A stretch of 64,000 bases of DNA from Candidatus Nomurabacteria bacterium (GTDB lineage: Bacteria > Patescibacteriota > Minisyncoccia > Phycocordibacterales > UBA9973), in assembly GCA_028286485.1 (NCBI GenBank), contig JAQBRM010000027.1, positions 10,632 through 74,631 on the forward strand, in the 5' to 3' direction. Shown here one piece after another: positions 3,938 through 17,661 of this stretch. How positions within the stretch are numbered: the stretch's first letter is position 1; each line of letters opens with the position of its first letter. The notes beneath the pieces were generated by a model, which saw only the letters and a program-made list of their open reading frames with translations, had not been told where the DNA came from and ran no database searches. The position numbers and the translations under genes were made by a program.

Positions 3938-4843
3938 CTACATAAAGGCACGCTGCACCTCATCAATGATCTCTTCCCAAACCGGCTCATTGTTTTTGTT
4001 GTAGTTGAAGATAGCCTCATTGGCGGCGGTAATATATTCATCCGCCGTCTCCTCCGCAAATGACAGTGCGTCGGCGAAGTCCTTGGCGGGGTGATTATCC
4101 ATAAACCATGTGATCAGTGTCTGCTTCTTTTCTTTCATATCGGTCGGGCAGTCCGTGATGTCATCCAAAAGTTGGAATACCATACCGAGATTAGTGGCAT
4201 AGTTTTCCGCAAAATCCCTTGACTCCTCATCAATACCGGCCAGCAGCATGCCGATATGCAATGGTCGATAGAAAGAATAGTGCGCGCTTTTTAATTCCAT
4301 GGTCTTCTCGATCATGTCCCGAGATAGTACTTGTTCGCTGCTGTATAGCACATCCAGCATCTGCCCATGAATGACTTCCGCCAAGACCGTGGCGAACTCT
4401 TTGCGCACATCATCAATAGTATAGGGTTCGACCGCTTCCATTTCATCCAAGCATTCATACGCCCATGTTAGTAGTACGTCTCCGGCCAGAATGGCAATCG
4501 ATGAGCCGAATTTTTTATTCATCGTCATGACGCCTCGTCGCGTATGTTCGTCATCAATCACATCATCGTGCACCAGACAAAAGAAGTGCAGCAGTTCTAT
4601 AGCGGCCAGCAAGGGGAAAATATCCTGCTCACCACCTTCCGTCACATAGCCGCAGTACGTCATGTACGGCCGGAAGCGTTTGCCTTCTTGCGCCACGGCC
4701 TGCAAATGAAAAATAATTTCCCGTACGGCTTTGTTCTCGCTATAATTGCTAAATATCCTGCCTTTCTCTTCAATAAGCGCCATGAAGCGATCATCGAAGA
4801 AATTTTTAAACTCATTTAAATTCATCATTTCCCCATCATACAA
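3938..4843 (-). CDS. polyprenyl diphosphate synthase (trans-isoprenyl diphosphate synthase family)
   Basis: First DDxxD motif LVHDDVIDDEHTRRG and second motif FQLLDDITD. 301 aa. Confidence 0.85.
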   Translation of the reverse strand: MYDGEMMNLNEFKNFFDDRFMALIEEKGRIFSNYSENKAVREIIFHLQAVAQEGKRFRPYMTYCGYVTEGGEQDIFPLLAAIELLHFFCLVHDDVIDDEHTRRGVMTMNKKFGSSIAILAGDVLLTWAYECLDEMEAVEPYTIDDVRKEFATVLAEVIHGQMLDVLYSSEQVLSRDMIEKTMELKSAHYSFYRPLHIGMLLAGIDEESRDFAENYATNLGMVFQLLDDITDCPTDMKEKKQTLITWFMDNHPAKDFADALSFAEETADEYITAANEAIFNYNKNNEPVWEEIIDEVQRAFM

Positions 4844-4884: not shown

Positions 4885-7548
4885 TTAAAGAATTTTTTTC
4901 AGGTAACCACCGGTGTAGGAATGCTTGTTGTTGGCGACTTCTTCCGGTGTGCCTTTAGCCACGATCTTACCGCCATGCACGCCGCCTTCCGGACCGAAGT
5001 CGATCAGCCAGTCAGCACATTTGATGAGGTCGAGATTGTGTTCAATCACTACCACGGTGTTGCCCTTGGCAACGAGACGATTCAATACACCGATCAAATT
5101 TTTCACATCATCGTAGTGCAAGCCCACCGTCGGTTCATCCAAGAGATAAATAGTTTTCTCCAAATACGGACGATAGAGTTCCGAGGCGATCTTCACGCGT
5201 TGCGCTTCGCCGCCGGACAATGTCGTGGCGCTCTGACCCAGCTTCACATATCCCAAACCAACGTCGGACAGTGTTTTCAATCGGTCATACAGGGCCGGAA
5301 TTTCTCCAAAGAATTCCAAGGCTTCTTCCACTGTCAGCTGCAACACATCATAAATATTCTTCTTCTTGTATTTCACCACCAATGTTTCCTTATCAAAACG
5401 TTTGCCATTGCAAACATCACAAGTCACATACACGGTCGGCAAGAAGTGCATCTCTACTGCGATCTCGCCATTACCTTCACACGCTTCACAACGGCCGCCT
5501 TTGACATTGAATGAGAAGCGGTTGATCTTCCAGCCGCGCAAACGGGCTTCATCCGTCGCTGCAAAGAGATCACGAATATGGGTAAAAGCACCGGTGTAGG
5601 TGGCAATGTTGGAGCGCGGAGTGCGACCGATAGCGGACTGATCAATCATAATGGCGCGTGCCAAATACTCGCTGCCGCTGAATGAAGCACAATTGAATGT
5701 CTTGGCGCTGCGCATCTTGCGTTCAAAACGCGCCTGCAAATTACTGTATAAAATATCATACAAAAAAGTACTTTTGCCAGAACCGGACACACCGGTAATA
5801 GCCACCATCTTGCCGAGCGGTACTTCAATGTTTTGATTATGGAGATTGTGCAAGTTGGCGCCGACTATTTTAATAGTGCCCTTGTCGGTATCACGTCGCT
5901 TGTCAGGAATTTCTATAGCTTCTTCTTTACGCAGATATGCCAACGTACGAGAACCGGAAGGATTTGTTTTAGCTGCTAACAATTTATCGAGATAGCCTGA
6001 TACCACGACTTGTCCACCATGAATGCCAGCTTTCGGACCGATATCGATAATGTAGTCTGACGCATAGATAGTATCTTCATCGTGCTCCACCACGATGATG
6101 GTATTGCCGATGTCACGCAGATCTTCCAAGGTACGGATCAGTCGTTCATTGTCACGTTGGTGTAAGCCAATTGTTGGTTCGTCCAACACATATAATGCAC
6201 CGACCAATCGAGAGCCGAGCTGTGAGGCGAGACGAATACGCTGTGCTTCCCCGCCGGACAACGTATTGGCGGTACGATTCAATGCCAAGTATTCCAACCC
6301 AACATTCAAAAGGAAATTCAAACGATCTTCAATTTCCTTGGTGACCGCATTGGCAACTTCGCGATCCTTGGCGGAAAGCTTGATGGTGACGAAGAAGTTA
6401 AATGCTTCTTCCACGGACATGGACGTCAGATCAACAATATTTATCCCTCTCACGGTGCCGTCTTCATTTGTCTTGGTCGTTCCAAGAAATACATTCAAGG
6501 CTTCGGGCCGCAGGCGCTTGCCGTGACATGATTCACATGGTTCCGTGCCGCCGAAAAACTTCGTGCCGATACCATTACAAGCCGGACAGGCGCCGTATGG
6601 ACTATTAAAAGAGAAGAGGCGCGGTTCTATTTCCGGAAATGAGAAGCCATCATTCGGACAAGCGAATTTGCTGGACAGGAGAAATTCCTGCAAGAGGTCG
6701 GTATCCATGGAGAAGTCCGGCGATGTGCCGAATGTCACTTGCACCAAACCGTCCGCTTCGAGTAATGCCCGCTCAACCGCTTCGGATAGTCGCAGCTCGG
6801 CGTCACGAGGCGTATCCTTGAATTCATGTACGGCGAGTTCATCCACCAGCACTTCGATATTGTGGGTGGTGGTCTTGTTCATTTCAATGCGTTCACGCAG
6901 GTTGTGCATTTTGCCATCGACGCGCACGGTTGAAAAACCGCGACCGAGCAAATCGTACAGCAGCTGGTAGTATTCGCCTTTTCGTCCGCGCACGACCGGC
7001 GCATAAATTTGAATGCGGGTATCGTTCCATGCCACTCCCATGACTTCCTTTTTTTGTTTGGCAGTACTGGCTTTGGAAATATCCTTGATTTTACTTAAAA
7101 CGAAACTGTTGATTTCTTCCATCGAAAGTTTTTGAATGAGCGTGCCACAGACCGGACAGTAGGCTTTGCCGACGCGCGCATAGAGCACGCGCAGGTAGTC
7201 GTAAATTTCCGTGATAGTTGCCACAGTTGAACGAGGGTTGTTGGAGCGGGACTTTTGATCGATTGAGATCGCCGGTGACAGTCCGGTAATCTCATCGACA
7301 TCGGGCTTGGGCATTTGATTCAAGAATTGCCGCGCATAGGAAGACAATGACTCAACGTATCGGCGTTGGCCCTCGGCAAAAATAGTATCGAAGGCCAACG
7401 AACTCTTCCCTGACCCTGACATGCCGGTAATGGCAATCATGGCGTTTCGCGGCATTTCGACACTGATATTCTTAAGGTTATGCGTCCGCGCGCCTTTGAC
7501 AATAATGCTTTCAGCGGCGGTCTCAGCTGTTCTTTTCCTTTTTTCCAC
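4885..7548 (-). CDS. uvrA: excinuclease ABC subunit A
   Basis: Walker A GMSGSGKSSLAFDTIFAEGQRRYVESLSSYARQF, duplicated ABC ATPase modules, zinc-finger cysteines. 887 aa. Confidence 0.95.
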   Translation of the reverse strand: MEKRKRTAETAAESIIVKGARTHNLKNISVEMPRNAMIAITGMSGSGKSSLAFDTIFAEGQRRYVESLSSYARQFLNQMPKPDVDEITGLSPAISIDQKSRSNNPRSTVATITEIYDYLRVLYARVGKAYCPVCGTLIQKLSMEEINSFVLSKIKDISKASTAKQKKEVMGVAWNDTRIQIYAPVVRGRKGEYYQLLYDLLGRGFSTVRVDGKMHNLRERIEMNKTTTHNIEVLVDELAVHEFKDTPRDAELRLSEAVERALLEADGLVQVTFGTSPDFSMDTDLLQEFLLSSKFACPNDGFSFPEIEPRLFSFNSPYGACPACNGIGTKFFGGTEPCESCHGKRLRPEALNVFLGTTKTNEDGTVRGINIVDLTSMSVEEAFNFFVTIKLSAKDREVANAVTKEIEDRLNFLLNVGLEYLALNRTANTLSGGEAQRIRLASQLGSRLVGALYVLDEPTIGLHQRDNERLIRTLEDLRDIGNTIIVVEHDEDTIYASDYIIDIGPKAGIHGGQVVVSGYLDKLLAAKTNPSGSRTLAYLRKEEAIEIPDKRRDTDKGTIKIVGANLHNLHNQNIEVPLGKMVAITGVSGSGKSTFLYDILYSNLQARFERKMRSAKTFNCASFSGSEYLARAIMIDQSAIGRTPRSNIATYTGAFTHIRDLFAATDEARLRGWKINRFSFNVKGGRCEACEGNGEIAVEMHFLPTVYVTCDVCNGKRFDKETLVVKYKKKNIYDVLQLTVEEALEFFGEIPALYDRLKTLSDVGLGYVKLGQSATTLSGGEAQRVKIASELYRPYLEKTIYLLDEPTVGLHYDDVKNLIGVLNRLVAKGNTVVVIEHNLDLIKCADWLIDFGPEGGVHGGKIVAKGTPEEVANNKHSYTGGYLKKIL

Positions 7549-12260: not shown

Positions 12261-13299
12261 GATCTTCTATGGAAAGTAGGGTTTGTTTATAATTATCAAA
12301 TTGTTCCAAGACAATGCCGGTACCGCGTGCCACGGCGGACAACGGATCTTCGGCAATGTGCACCGGCAGTTTCAATTCCTGTTGCAGCAGTATGGCCAAG
12401 CCGCGCAGGTTCGCGCCGCCGCCGGTCAAGACAATGCCTGTTTGTAAAATATCGGAGACCATTTCCGGCGGCGCGGTTTCCAAGACTTCGCGAATGCCGG
12501 CCACCAGCAATCCCACCGTACGCGCAAACGCCTCGCGCACGTCACCATCGGTGATCATCAACGCCTTCGGCAAGCCGCTGACCAAGTCTCGTCCGCGCAC
12601 TTCTATTTCCATGTATTCCGTTTCCATGGCGGAGCCCAGCTCTACCTTTACCGTTTCGGCTGTGCGTTCCCCGACCAATAGTTTGAATTCATCGCGCAGG
12701 TAGTCAATGACACGAGCATCGAAGTGGTCCCCGGCCACGCGCAGATTCAATGAGCGCACGATGCCGCCCAAAGCAATCAGCGCGATGTCAGTCGTACCGC
12801 CACCGATATCAACAATAAATGATGCGTCGGCGGACAATACCGGTAGACGTACACCAATGGCCGCTGCCATGGCTTCCTCGATCAAATGCACTTCACGTGC
12901 GCCGGCATCAATGCCGGCATCGTAGACTGCGCGCACTTCGACATTGGTAATGCCGGACGGCACGCCGATGAGCACTCTCGGTCGAAAAAATTTCTTTGAA
13001 ATTTTTTCGACCTTGCGAATGAAGTACGCCAGCATTTCCTCGGCCATTTCAAAATCCGACACCACGCCTTCCGACAACGGCCGAATGATCTTGATATGCT
13101 CCGGCGTCTTGCCCCACATTTCCTTGGCTTCCTTGCCGATGGCCACGATCTGGCCGGTCTTTTGATTGACCGCCACAATCGACGGTTCATCGATCACGAT
13201 GCCCTGCCCTTTCAAGTACACCAAGGTGTTGGCGGTACCCAAGTCGATGCCGATATCATTTGAAAAACGCTGGTAAAGATTCTTGAACATGTTAGGCAA
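12247..13299 (-). CDS. mreB: rod shape-determining protein MreB (actin homolog)
   Basis: IGIDLGTANTLVY phosphate-1 motif and full actin-fold length (350 aa). Confidence 0.95.
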   Translation of the reverse strand: MPNMFKNLYQRFSNDIGIDLGTANTLVYLKGQGIVIDEPSIVAVNQKTGQIVAIGKEAKEMWGKTPEHIKIIRPLSEGVVSDFEMAEEMLAYFIRKVEKISKKFFRPRVLIGVPSGITNVEVRAVYDAGIDAGAREVHLIEEAMAAAIGVRLPVLSADASFIVDIGGGTTDIALIALGGIVRSLNLRVAGDHFDARVIDYLRDEFKLLVGERTAETVKVELGSAMETEYMEIEVRGRDLVSGLPKALMITDGDVREAFARTVGLLVAGIREVLETAPPEMVSDILQTGIVLTGGGANLRGLAILLQQELKLPVHIAEDPLSAVARGTGIVLEQFDNYKQTLLSIEDHASL

Positions 13300-16350: not shown

Positions 16351-16728
16351 ATGATTATCGCCCTTGTTATCGTTATTGCCCTGCTGCTCATCGCGCTGTG
16401 GATCAGCGCCATGGCATTGTGGTGGCGTCATGAGCAAGGACGTATTGCTCCCCTGCAACCCCGCGCCGTCATTCGACATTTGAACAAAGCCGCTCGTTTG
16501 GGCCGCCGCAGCCTGTACAGCACCATGCGATACAGCAAGCGCGCCGGACGATGGGGCAACAGAAAAGTCAGCAATGCATTCGTGGCGGTCTTTCCCAAAG
16601 CCAAAGCCGCTTTCACAAAGAAAGATATGCTGACCGGCTTGCAGCATGGTCCCTCATCATACTTCTTGGCCAGCTTGTCCAAGCGCGCGAAGAAGAAAAC
16701 CAAACCCTCCGAAGATTTGTCAGTATAA
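16351..16728 (+). CDS. hypothetical small membrane protein
   Basis: The ATG overlaps the tsf stop (taaATG). One TM helix, then a basic tail. An antisense ORF at 16428..16820 competes with it, so the call is weak. Confidence 0.3.
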   Translation: MIIALVIVIALLLIALWISAMALWWRHEQGRIAPLQPRAVIRHLNKAARLGRRSLYSTMRYSKRAGRWGNRKVSNAFVAVFPKAKAAFTKKDMLTGLQHGPSSYFLASLSKRAKKKTKPSEDLSV

Positions 16729-16753
16729 GGAAAATCTGATATTCTAGGGGCAC

Positions 16754-16830
16754 GCCGGATTAGCTCAGTTGTAGCAGCCTTTTGTATAAAGCGAAGAGAG
16801 CCATCAATCCAATCTGACAACTCCGGCTCC
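16754..16830 (+). pseudogene. decayed tRNA paralog (tandem duplicate of the downstream tRNA; D-arm, anticodon arm and T-arm do not fold)
   Basis: Aligns along its whole length to the tRNA at 16852..16927 (GCCGGATTAGCTCAGTTG... versus GCCGGAATAGCTCAGTTGG...). Stem complementarity is broken and there is no CCA. Confidence 0.4.
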
Positions 16831-16851
16831 TTAAAATTTCATATCTATAAT

Positions 16852-16927
16852 GCCGGAATAGCTCAGTTGGTAGAGCAACGCTTTTGTAAAGCGAAGGTCG
16901 TCAGTTCAAGTCTGTCTTCCGGCTCCA
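16852..16927 (+). tRNA. tRNA-Thr (anticodon UGU), CCA encoded
   Basis: 7-bp acceptor stem GCCGGAA/TTCCGGC, D-arm GCTC-AGTTGGTA-GAGC, anticodon loop TT-TGT-AA, T-loop TTCAAGT, then TCCA. Confidence 0.75.
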
Positions 16928-16971
16928 AATAAAAAGATGCACCCATAGGGTGCATCTTTTTATTTGGAGCC
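16921..16971. terminator. 51-nt perfect palindrome (24-bp arms) acting as a bidirectional terminator
   Basis: ggctccaaataaaaagatgcaccc-ata-gggtgcatctttttatttggagcc. The left arm begins with the tRNA 3' end GGCTCCA. The right arm contains the stop codon of the convergent gene 16960..17661. Confidence 0.6.
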
Positions 16972-17661
16972 CTGAGTATTTATCAAAGGACTTTTGATAG
17001 TTGGTGGGGGCGTAGCCTTCAGCGGATTAGTTACACTGCTTGGCAATAGCTTTTCGAGATCATCCAAGCTCATAAAGCCACTCTGTGTCTTCCCGTTAAT
17101 CACTAACGATGGCAGACTGGCGGGTATCTTATAGATAGTCTGTAGAGCACGGATGGTGGAGCTATCAAGACCGGTATCAAATGAATAAATACGCACTTGC
17201 GGATACGCTTGACGTAGTGCATCCAAAACATATCCTTGACGGGTGCAGTCAGCGCAACTGTTAGAATTTTTGTAAAAGTACAATATGGTAGTAATAGGCT
17301 GCTTGCAGCGTATGCTGATTTGTTTGGTCAGCAAGAAATCTTTCACTTCCAAGACCGAATACTGTTGTTTCAATAACTGTATTTGATTCGGGTCATTGAG
17401 ATTTTGCTCAGCATATGAAATCTTATCGGCCAAGTCGGAAATTTCGCTCGCCAATGTAGTATTGCCGATATCCTGACATGACAATGATTGCAGCAGGTAA
17501 AACTGCGTTTCCGATGACATGATATCCACATTCACCTTATTTTGGGCATTCCTGATGTCGGTTATTTTTTTATTATTCAAATAAGTACTGATATACCAGG
17601 CTACGGCAAACAAGGCGATAGTGATCAAGAGTACGATAAAATATTTCTTAAATCCTTTCAT
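16960..17661 (-). CDS. membrane-anchored protein with a thioredoxin-like CxxC (CADC) C-terminal region; hypothetical
   Basis: N-terminal TM helix. The segment FYKNSNSCADCTRQGYVLDALRQAYPQVRIYSFD resembles a thioredoxin-fold active site. Translationally coupled to the upstream GT2. Confidence 0.45.
   Translation of the reverse strand: MKGFKKYFIVLLITIALFAVAWYISTYLNNKKITDIRNAQNKVNVDIMSSETQFYLLQSLSCQDIGNTTLASEISDLADKISYAEQNLNDPNQIQLLKQQYSVLEVKDFLLTKQISIRCKQPITTILYFYKNSNSCADCTRQGYVLDALRQAYPQVRIYSFDTGLDSSTIRALQTIYKIPASLPSLVINGKTQSGFMSLDDLEKLLPSSVTNPLKATPPPTIKSPLINTQGSK

Follow-up and report, generated by a model that had tools for sequence, protein, structure and literature searches.

A degenerate tRNA-Thr(UGU) copy and a terminator hairpin that reaches into the tRNA 3′ end at one locus of a Candidatus Nomurabacteria bacterium

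Organization and transcription of the tRNA-Thr locus

The window, by which is meant the whole 64,000-nucleotide stretch of Candidatus Nomurabacteria DNA that was analysed, carries a tRNA-Thr(UGU) gene in a noncoding stretch that follows mreB (− strand), proS (−), rpsB (+), tsf (+) and an ORF for a 125-aa membrane protein (+). On the right side of the gene are a thioredoxin-like (Trx-like) membrane protein (−), a GT2 glycosyltransferase (−), a DsbA-like protein (+) and rpoD (−). The features of the locus, which include a degenerate second copy of the tRNA (PSI) and a long inverted repeat, are listed in Table 1. The order tsf, small ORF, tRNA-Thr(UGU) and convergent Trx-like gene is found clade-wide; more than 60 related loci have an orthologous tRNA-Thr(UGU) in this position, and homologues of the small ORF (124–142 aa) occupy the same position in L085 and L165–L169 (L-numbers denote the related loci or lineages that were compared with the window). 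The flanking proteins matched MAG proteins assigned to Candidatus Nomurabacteria/Paceibacterota, and the best EF-Ts loci belonged to Patescibacteria/Nomurabacteria MAGs. The closest relatives in the databases searched reached about 71–74% for the Trx-like protein and 88% for EF-Ts, and none was nearer. Loci L171 and L172 stop short of the tRNA. An assembly artefact is unlikely, as PSI, the tRNA and the inverted repeat are base-for-base the same in separate assemblies (a JGI contig spanning the whole locus and two Logan contigs spanning the inverted repeat), with unique flanks on both sides.

Table 1. Positions of the features of the tRNA-Thr(UGU) locus in the window
Feature	Position	Strand	Basis
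Conserved ORF for a small membrane protein, 125 aa; next after tsf and overlapping the −35 box at its 3′ end	16351–16728	+	ORF list
Sigma-70-type promoter, TTGTCA-17 nt-TATTCT, TG before the −10	16717–16745	+	promoter scan
PSI, degenerate full-length tRNA-Thr(UGU) copy, ends CCT	16754–16831	+	alignment to intact tRNA
Spacer, 20 nt; last six nt (TATAAT, 16846–16851) abut the tRNA 5′ end	16832–16851	+	sequence
Functional tRNA-Thr(UGU), encoded CCA	16852–16927	+	ARAGORN, Rfam
Perfect inverted repeat; arms 16921–16944 and 16948–16971, loop ATA 16945–16947	16921–16971	.	sequence
Bidirectional intrinsic terminator core (predicted)	16927–16965	.	sequence, position between convergent genes, likeness to other hairpins
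Outer extension GGAGCC, reverse complement of tRNA nt 70–75 (GGCTCC, 16921–16926)	16966–16971	.	
Convergent Trx-like membrane-protein gene, 233 aa, stop 16960–16962	16960–17661	−	ORF list

The slot between the Trx-like gene and tRNA-Thr is variable in content. It holds a ∼480-aa PMT_2 glycosyltransferase in L165–L170 and GtrA with another ORF in L171 and L172, and it is empty in the window and in L006. In L085 the whole block of Trx-like, GT2 and DsbA genes has changed sides relative to the small ORF and is inverted. By comparison across these lineages, the flank of tRNA-Thr is a rearrangement hotspot.

ARAGORN called a tRNA-Thr(tgt) at 16852–16927, with no call upstream of it, and the Rfam tRNA model (RF00005) scored 65.7 bits over 16852–16924 against a gathering score of 29. 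The fold of this intact gene has a z-score of −2.88 against shuffles. It differs from most close relatives by a compensatory pair of changes, T7A/A66T, and by A64T, which gives U50.U64. All three changes, that is the U50.U64 mismatch in the T-stem and the swapped 7-66 pair, are also present in L165, which has an identical tRNA; L170, the sister of L165 at the protein level, is without them.

A promoter of the form TTGTCA-N17-TATYCT precedes the first tRNA copy at the corresponding position in L005, L006, L085, L166, L168 and L169, and L165 has the version TTGCAA-N17-TATTGT. The promoter has thus been kept in eight lineages, always directly before the first copy, irrespective of whether that copy is the intact gene or PSI. 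The −10 box in the window ends 8 nt before PSI, and its spacing would place the transcription start at about 16751–16754, approximately at the first base of PSI, so that PSI would be transcribed as a 5′ leader of the tRNA. Two nearer candidates were rejected. The TATAAT at 16846–16851 lies too close, abutting the +1 position of the tRNA, and an internal combination of CTGACA (16814–16819) and TTTCAT has a −10 without A at position 2 and is not listed by the promoter scan.

The leaders of the relatives are diverse. In L169 (reverse complement of ∼4730–4760) and L166 (reverse complement of ∼4800–4830) the −10 box ends 8–9 nt before the first base of the tRNA, and because it is so near, transcripts of this type may begin within 1–2 nt of the mature 5′ end as a nearly leaderless pre-tRNA. 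L005, L006, L085 and L168 have a 23–28-nt leader, the end of which pairs back onto the −10 region (ATCCTAGG...CCTAGGAT). Perfect copies of the first 12–23 nt of the tRNA are found 38–330 nt upstream in L009 (5210–5224), L011 (4297–4319 and 4368–4390), L094, L110, L118 and L146. These are distant lineages, and the copies match the acceptor sequence of their own lineage and overlap promoter-like boxes; the two in L011 are in tandem with a period of ∼70 nt, the preceding spacer having been duplicated too.

The degenerate copy and its homologues in related lineages

PSI aligned to the intact tRNA over its full length with 62 of 83 columns identical and 12 gap columns. The alignment score was 77.5, compared with −1.1 ± 7.1 and a maximum of 18 for 500 shuffles. 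Nucleotides 1–18 of PSI (16754–16771) are the ancestral intact 5′ end, with T7. Beyond this point nt 26–27 are lost, T54 is changed to C, G57 is lost, the D-loop carries a deletion and TA is inserted in the anticodon loop. The D, anticodon and T stems have lost their complementarity, the T loop reads TCCAATC, and the 3′ end is CCT, not CCA, followed by the 20 nt that separate PSI from the tRNA. The Rfam tRNA model gave no match to PSI (E ≤ 10, lax filters) and ARAGORN found no tRNA at 16754–16831. PSI was also considered as a non-canonical tRNA or another known RNA and this was rejected; the only Rfam matches of the region at E ≤ 10 were spurious ones of miRNA type, to the hairpin, and the homologues of PSI described below were likewise negative in the tRNA search. 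The sequence-only reading had taken the upstream copy to be a broken, non-functional, full-length copy of the tRNA, and the silence of both tools, the unpaired stems and the CCT end bear this out, ARAGORN having accepted the downstream copy alone.

That reading had further supposed a local duplication. A simple, lineage-specific one is not supported by comparison with the orthologous loci, where homologues of PSI accompany the same tRNA. A degenerate second copy is present in four of the nearest lineages, namely the window, L165, L166/L167 and L085. Three changes (the loss of nt 26–27, T54>C and the loss of G57) are common to all four PSI copies and occur in no intact copy. Subgroups are marked by indels: the window and L165 have the D-loop deletion and the TA insertion of the anticodon loop in common and are identical at 27 of 30 positions across this stretch, while L166 and L085 have in common a 9-nt insertion, GCCACGCAA, in the variable region. 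Because the PSI-specific changes are common to all four and are accompanied by these subgroup indels, the PSI copies are, on sequence grounds, homologous.

The distribution of PSI is patchy. It is present in L166 and absent from L168 and L169, which, like L006, have the intact tRNA only; it is present in L165, whereas L170, with a GT2 protein 91% identical to that of L165, has none after the tRNA, the 5′ side there being cut off by the contig end. Its placement also varies, being upstream of the tRNA in the window only and downstream of the intact gene in the other three lineages, with a spacer of 0–20 nt. A separate second copy of tRNA-Thr was seen in L019 (about 5323–5445), 74 nt after the intact one. 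It is decayed in its 5′ half, perfect over the 49 nt of its 3′ half, and carries a 9-bp hairpin insertion (GGAATGCTA-CGGA-TAGCATTCC).

PSI and its neighbouring tRNA appear to evolve in concert. The PSI of L165 carries the derived A7, T64 and T66 of its neighbouring tRNA, and in both L165 and L166 PSI agrees at its 3′ end with the tRNA of the same lineage, a pattern which suggests gene conversion. The 5′ ends of PSI are decayed outside the window and intact within it. Since the first 18 nt in the window are in the ancestral intact state and the remainder has the PSI-specific states, the window PSI looks like a chimera, presumably a recombination product in which a PSI body follows an intact 5′ end. 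With PSI first here and the tRNA first elsewhere, two or more additional rearrangements have to be assumed; reasoning through unequal crossover, double crossover and array intermediates gave no single-step route to an upstream PSI.

The degree of conservation is less easily explained. Identity at four-fold degenerate sites between the PSI lineages is 0.25–0.47, which is saturation, and yet the PSI copies are 59–74% identical to each other and 69–75% identical to their own neighbouring tRNA. The conservation of PSI is similar to that of the DNA of the small ORF next to it. Neutral decay of a relic does not fully account for PSI, because conversion from the intact tRNA cannot preserve states that are specific to PSI. 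Something further is required, whether constraint acting on PSI or lateral movement of the tRNA/PSI cassette between lineages. Exchange of a short cassette has some support, because the tRNA/PSI subtype that unites the window with L165 is incongruent with the proteins, by which L165 pairs with L170. A recent lateral transfer of the whole flank was not seen, there being no high-identity tract upstream; a short exchanged patch between the window and L165 lineages is possible.

The constraint, if there is one, could reflect selection of PSI as a functional cis element, either a tRNA-derived leader or trailer RNA or a DNA signal, for the processing, promoter context or expression of tRNA-Thr. The survival of PSI-specific states in four lineages with saturated synonymous sites, at a level of conservation like that of the small-ORF DNA, is what such selection would predict. 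PSI also always lies within the transcription unit of the tRNA, and self-copies of the tRNA 5′ end recur upstream in other lineages, over promoter-like boxes. Against this, PSI keeps neither its structure nor its place. The fold z-scores of the four copies (−1.18 for the window, then −0.74, −1.79 and +1.13) are no better than shuffles, and the surviving stems differ by lineage, the PSI of L166 retaining the D, anticodon and T arms and that of the window only the acceptor pairing. Neither the side nor the spacer is conserved, and the element is missing from the sister lineages L168, L169 and L170 (with the truncation noted above) and from L006. We therefore consider a functional PSI to be improbable.

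The inverted repeat at the end of the tRNA

The inverted repeat that joins the tRNA to the convergent gene was exact on recount (24 of 24 pairs around a 3-nt loop), with a minimum free energy of −41 kcal mol−1 and a z-score of −11.4. The sequence-only reading had described it as a 51-nt perfect palindrome beginning with the tRNA 3′ end. The arms are indeed perfect and the first 7 nt are the last 7 nt of the tRNA, but the central ATA is not self-complementary, so that the structure is properly an inverted repeat of 24 bp per arm around a 3-nt spacer. As had also been read, it contains the stop codon of the convergent gene: the right arm holds TTA on the + strand (TAA, 16960–16962) together with the last three codons of the gene, GGC TCC AAA, which encode G, S and K.

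The centre of the repeat consists of an A-tract, AAATAAAAA (16927–16935), a stem, GATGCACCC (16936–16944), the loop ATA, the opposite stem, GGGTGCATC (16948–16956), and a T-tract, TTTTTATTT (16957–16965). The 9-bp stem is GC-rich and the stem-loop has an A-tract before it and a T-tract after it on both strands. The two units are convergent, the tRNA on the + strand ending at 16927 and the Trx-like gene on the − strand reaching its stop within the T-tract. By these features the inner 18 bp are predicted to be an ordinary bidirectional intrinsic terminator. Five other perfect hairpins of 12–16 bp with the same A-tract and T-tract design are present in the window, and perfect hairpins of 12–24 bp, no two with the same core, start within 3 nt of the tRNA end in 15 related loci, or in 16 if L017 is counted. 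A simple terminator scan of the window did not list the repeat, because it requires a T run that follows the complete stem, and here the T run sits inside the maximal stem. A MITE or other repeated palindromic element was rejected, the sequence being single-copy in the window and its core differing at every related locus.

The mreB coding region also contains an inverted repeat, with perfect arms of 15 bp around a 3-nt loop (GGTCGAAAAAATTTC / GAAATTTTTTCGACC, 12980–13012). Short-read contigs of these loci tend to break at or inside the long perfect hairpins, as at the contig ends of L001, L003 and L017. The L003 contig begins 2 nt inside the left arm of the palindrome and the L017 contig stops 1 nt past its palindrome. 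Fragmented assemblies may consequently contain too few terminators of this type.

The outer 6 bp (GGCTCC/GGAGCC) form no part of the terminator core. On the − strand GGAGCC supplies the codons GGC TCC of the convergent gene. As the T-tract, where intrinsic termination occurs, is inside the right arm, terminated RNAs of either direction would lack GGAGCC, and the outer pairing would exist only in DNA and in read-through RNA. Among the seven CCA-encoding loci with a hairpin that includes the terminal A, the pairing runs at least 4 nt deeper into the tRNA in three (6 nt in the window, 4 in L017 and 4 in L094), each on a different stem core. The binomial probability of this recurrence, at 1/4 per step, is about 2 × 10−6, or about 2 × 10−4 if L017 and L094 represent one event.

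The outer pairing is thus not chance. It might have been produced by coincidence from a convergent tail that happens to end Gly-Ser-Lys (GGC TCC AAA), and the C-terminal tails of the Trx-like family, which are unconstrained, variable and rich in S, T, P and K, often do end in K-stop from the T-tract; L006, ending TCG AAA TAA, is one base short of pairing 3 nt further. Six extra pairs would nevertheless arise in this way with a probability of only about 2 × 10−4, and the extension is found again in two distant lineages, L017 and L094. The mirrored arm of L094 is non-coding, and for this reason the extension is not a codon coincidence. We regard this explanation as extremely unlikely. The sequence-only reading had held that the palindrome is not incidental, and the exact arms and the recurrence of the outer extension agree with it. 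It had offered a recombination or duplication scar and, as the alternative, a bidirectional terminator. Each is partly right, for different parts of the structure: the inner 18 bp fit the terminator, and only the outer 6 bp look like a mutational scar.

The arms are perfect and end abruptly. A single template switch has been documented both to form hairpin stems and to make them perfect (Monttinen and Loytynoja 2022, PMC8794818), and the outer 6 bp probably arose in this manner, by copying of the tRNA end into the flank. The closest relatives, L165, L166, L168 and L006, have different terminators, and a before-and-after pair is not visible among them.

Selection at the RNA level could instead have favoured pairing between the CCA end and the distal part of the terminator, for instance because it builds, in precursors that are read through or not terminated, a stem of at least 20 bp for an endonuclease such as RNase III to cut, or because it blocks antisense read-through into the tRNA. 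The non-random recurrence of the pairing in three lineages on different stem cores is consistent with this, and the terminator of L165 also pairs with CCAC if one bulge is allowed. A more extensive arrangement occurs in L095, L096, L116 and L117, where the terminator is followed, in the region 30–260 nt downstream of tRNA-Thr, by an inverted copy of tRNA nt ∼46–70, and the region is predicted to fold as one long hairpin of −66 to −81 kcal mol−1. Against selection on RNA stands the position of the T-tract, which by the mechanics of termination should leave GGAGCC out of terminated transcripts, and 12 of the 15 tRNA-abutting hairpins of the relatives have no such pairing. RNA-level selection seems to us unlikely.

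The same four loci go on, after the inverted copy, to the tRNA 3′ end repeated once or twice in direct orientation (GTGACGAWTCCTCGTSTGCCGGCTC), each repeat following a conserved block of ∼40 nt. No Rfam family matched these downstream repeats, which look like stacked att-type remnants or structured RNA. With direct 3′ and inverted fragments downstream at many loci of the clade, some stacked with a conserved flanking block, with a clade-wide recombination hotspot, and with PMT_2, GtrA or nothing between the tRNA and the Trx-like gene, the window itself might be read as the scar of a mobile element that integrated site-specifically at tRNA-Thr and was excised. The remnants that such an event should leave are not those found. 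With as many as 3 mismatches allowed, neither the tRNA 3′ end nor that of PSI was found a second time in the 64 kb. PSI spans the full tRNA length at a distance of only 20 nt, and the mirrored segment is in inverted and not in direct orientation. No integrase adjoins the tRNA, the neighbours being tsf, the small ORF and the Trx-like, GT2, DsbA and rpoD genes, and the PSI motif was absent from the viral contigs searched. An integration scar is accordingly very unlikely.

A proposed history of the locus and comparison with known systems

The reading that we favour, and think somewhat probable as a whole, is of a single tRNA-Thr unit with a PSI relic as its leader, a shared terminator, and an outer 6 bp added to the latter by template switching. 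The conserved promoter would fire at approximately the first base of PSI, giving a 5′ leader of roughly 100 nt with the functional tRNA next, and transcription from both directions would stop at one shared intrinsic terminator, in the T-tract of which the convergent stop codon is embedded. PSI would be the non-functional relic of an old tandem tRNA duplication. Recombination and gene conversion with the intact gene beside it would be the main reason that it is still recognizable, and deletions across the duplicated 3′ ends would have removed it repeatedly; in the window lineage reshuffling would have brought it upstream in chimeric form, with an intact 5′ end joined to a PSI body. At the terminator hairpin, a template switch in replication may have copied the tRNA 3′ end, as its reverse complement, onto the far flank. 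Such a copy would persist in one direction only, the tRNA end being immutable and the other flank free, because the far flank consists of variable tail codons here and is non-coding in L094.

A more integrated account is that tRNA-Thr is wrapped in self-derived sequence (PSI or 5′ and 3′ fragments, with the CCA-pairing terminator) as a selected cis system for the maturation or dosage of the only tRNA-Thr(UGU), and that the cassette moves between lineages by recombination. If so, the locus might provide a long duplex for RNase III-type cleavage of read-through precursors, or decoy acceptor strands, in Patescibacteria that are poor in RNases and have single-copy tRNAs. We consider this distinctly improbable.

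Taken alone the locus is one more tRNA pseudogene and one more terminator, and its value lies in the comparative picture. The single-copy tRNA-Thr of Paceibacteria/Nomurabacteria is a hotspot of tandem and inverted self-duplication; a dead tRNA copy can outlast neutral sites and still be recognized, and a terminator hairpin appears to grow one-way into a neighbouring immutable gene. If the template-switch ratchet of the favoured reading is true, the locus is a clean natural example of long perfect hairpins arising without selection. Selection of the CCA-end pairing, if that is what occurred, would instead suggest that organisms with very small sets of RNases have a route of tRNA 3′ maturation that has yet to be studied.

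PSI resembles known tRNA pseudogenes and tandem tRNA duplicates that evolve in concert, in being a full-length copy beside its parent with broken stems, no CCA, a negative result from tRNA finders and signs of exchange. It is unlike them in that its diagnostic changes are common to lineages saturated at synonymous sites, in that its side relative to the parent varies, and in the chimeric form with an intact 5′ end. The integrative elements that occupy tRNA 3′ ends, with their attL and attR sites, offer a likeness in the tRNA-derived fragments that flank tRNA-Thr at many related loci; they differ from the window, which has no direct 3′-end repeat, element or integrase and in which the mirrored piece is inverted.

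In E. coli, tRNA transcripts such as leuX (PMC2811032) and the proline tRNAs (PMC5291269) have Rho-independent terminators close to the CCA. These are the nearest functional analogue, with an encoded CCA followed almost at once by a terminator hairpin that nucleases must remove. In leuX the terminator is a stem-loop of 7 bp that lies past the CCA, in the 3′ trailer (PMC2811032), whereas the DNA repeat of the window overlaps 7 nt of the tRNA. With bidirectional intrinsic terminators the window has in common the GC-rich stem-loop, the A- and T-tracts, the convergent genes and the single stop codon in the T-tract, and the same design is used elsewhere in the genome; it departs from them in that the perfect stem runs 6 bp past the A- and T-tracts, into the tRNA acceptor end and CC, to make 24 pairs. 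Hairpins generated by template switching (PMC8794818), and those of bacterial quasipalindrome correction, resemble the outer extension in the perfect reverse-complement copy, its abrupt end and the lengthening of an existing hairpin, which makes a one-step origin plausible; both the event and its polarity, which an immutable tRNA end would impose, are proposed here from the present-day sequences. The components of the locus are all of known kinds, namely a tRNA pseudogene, a bidirectional intrinsic terminator and what is likely to be a template-switch extension of its stem.
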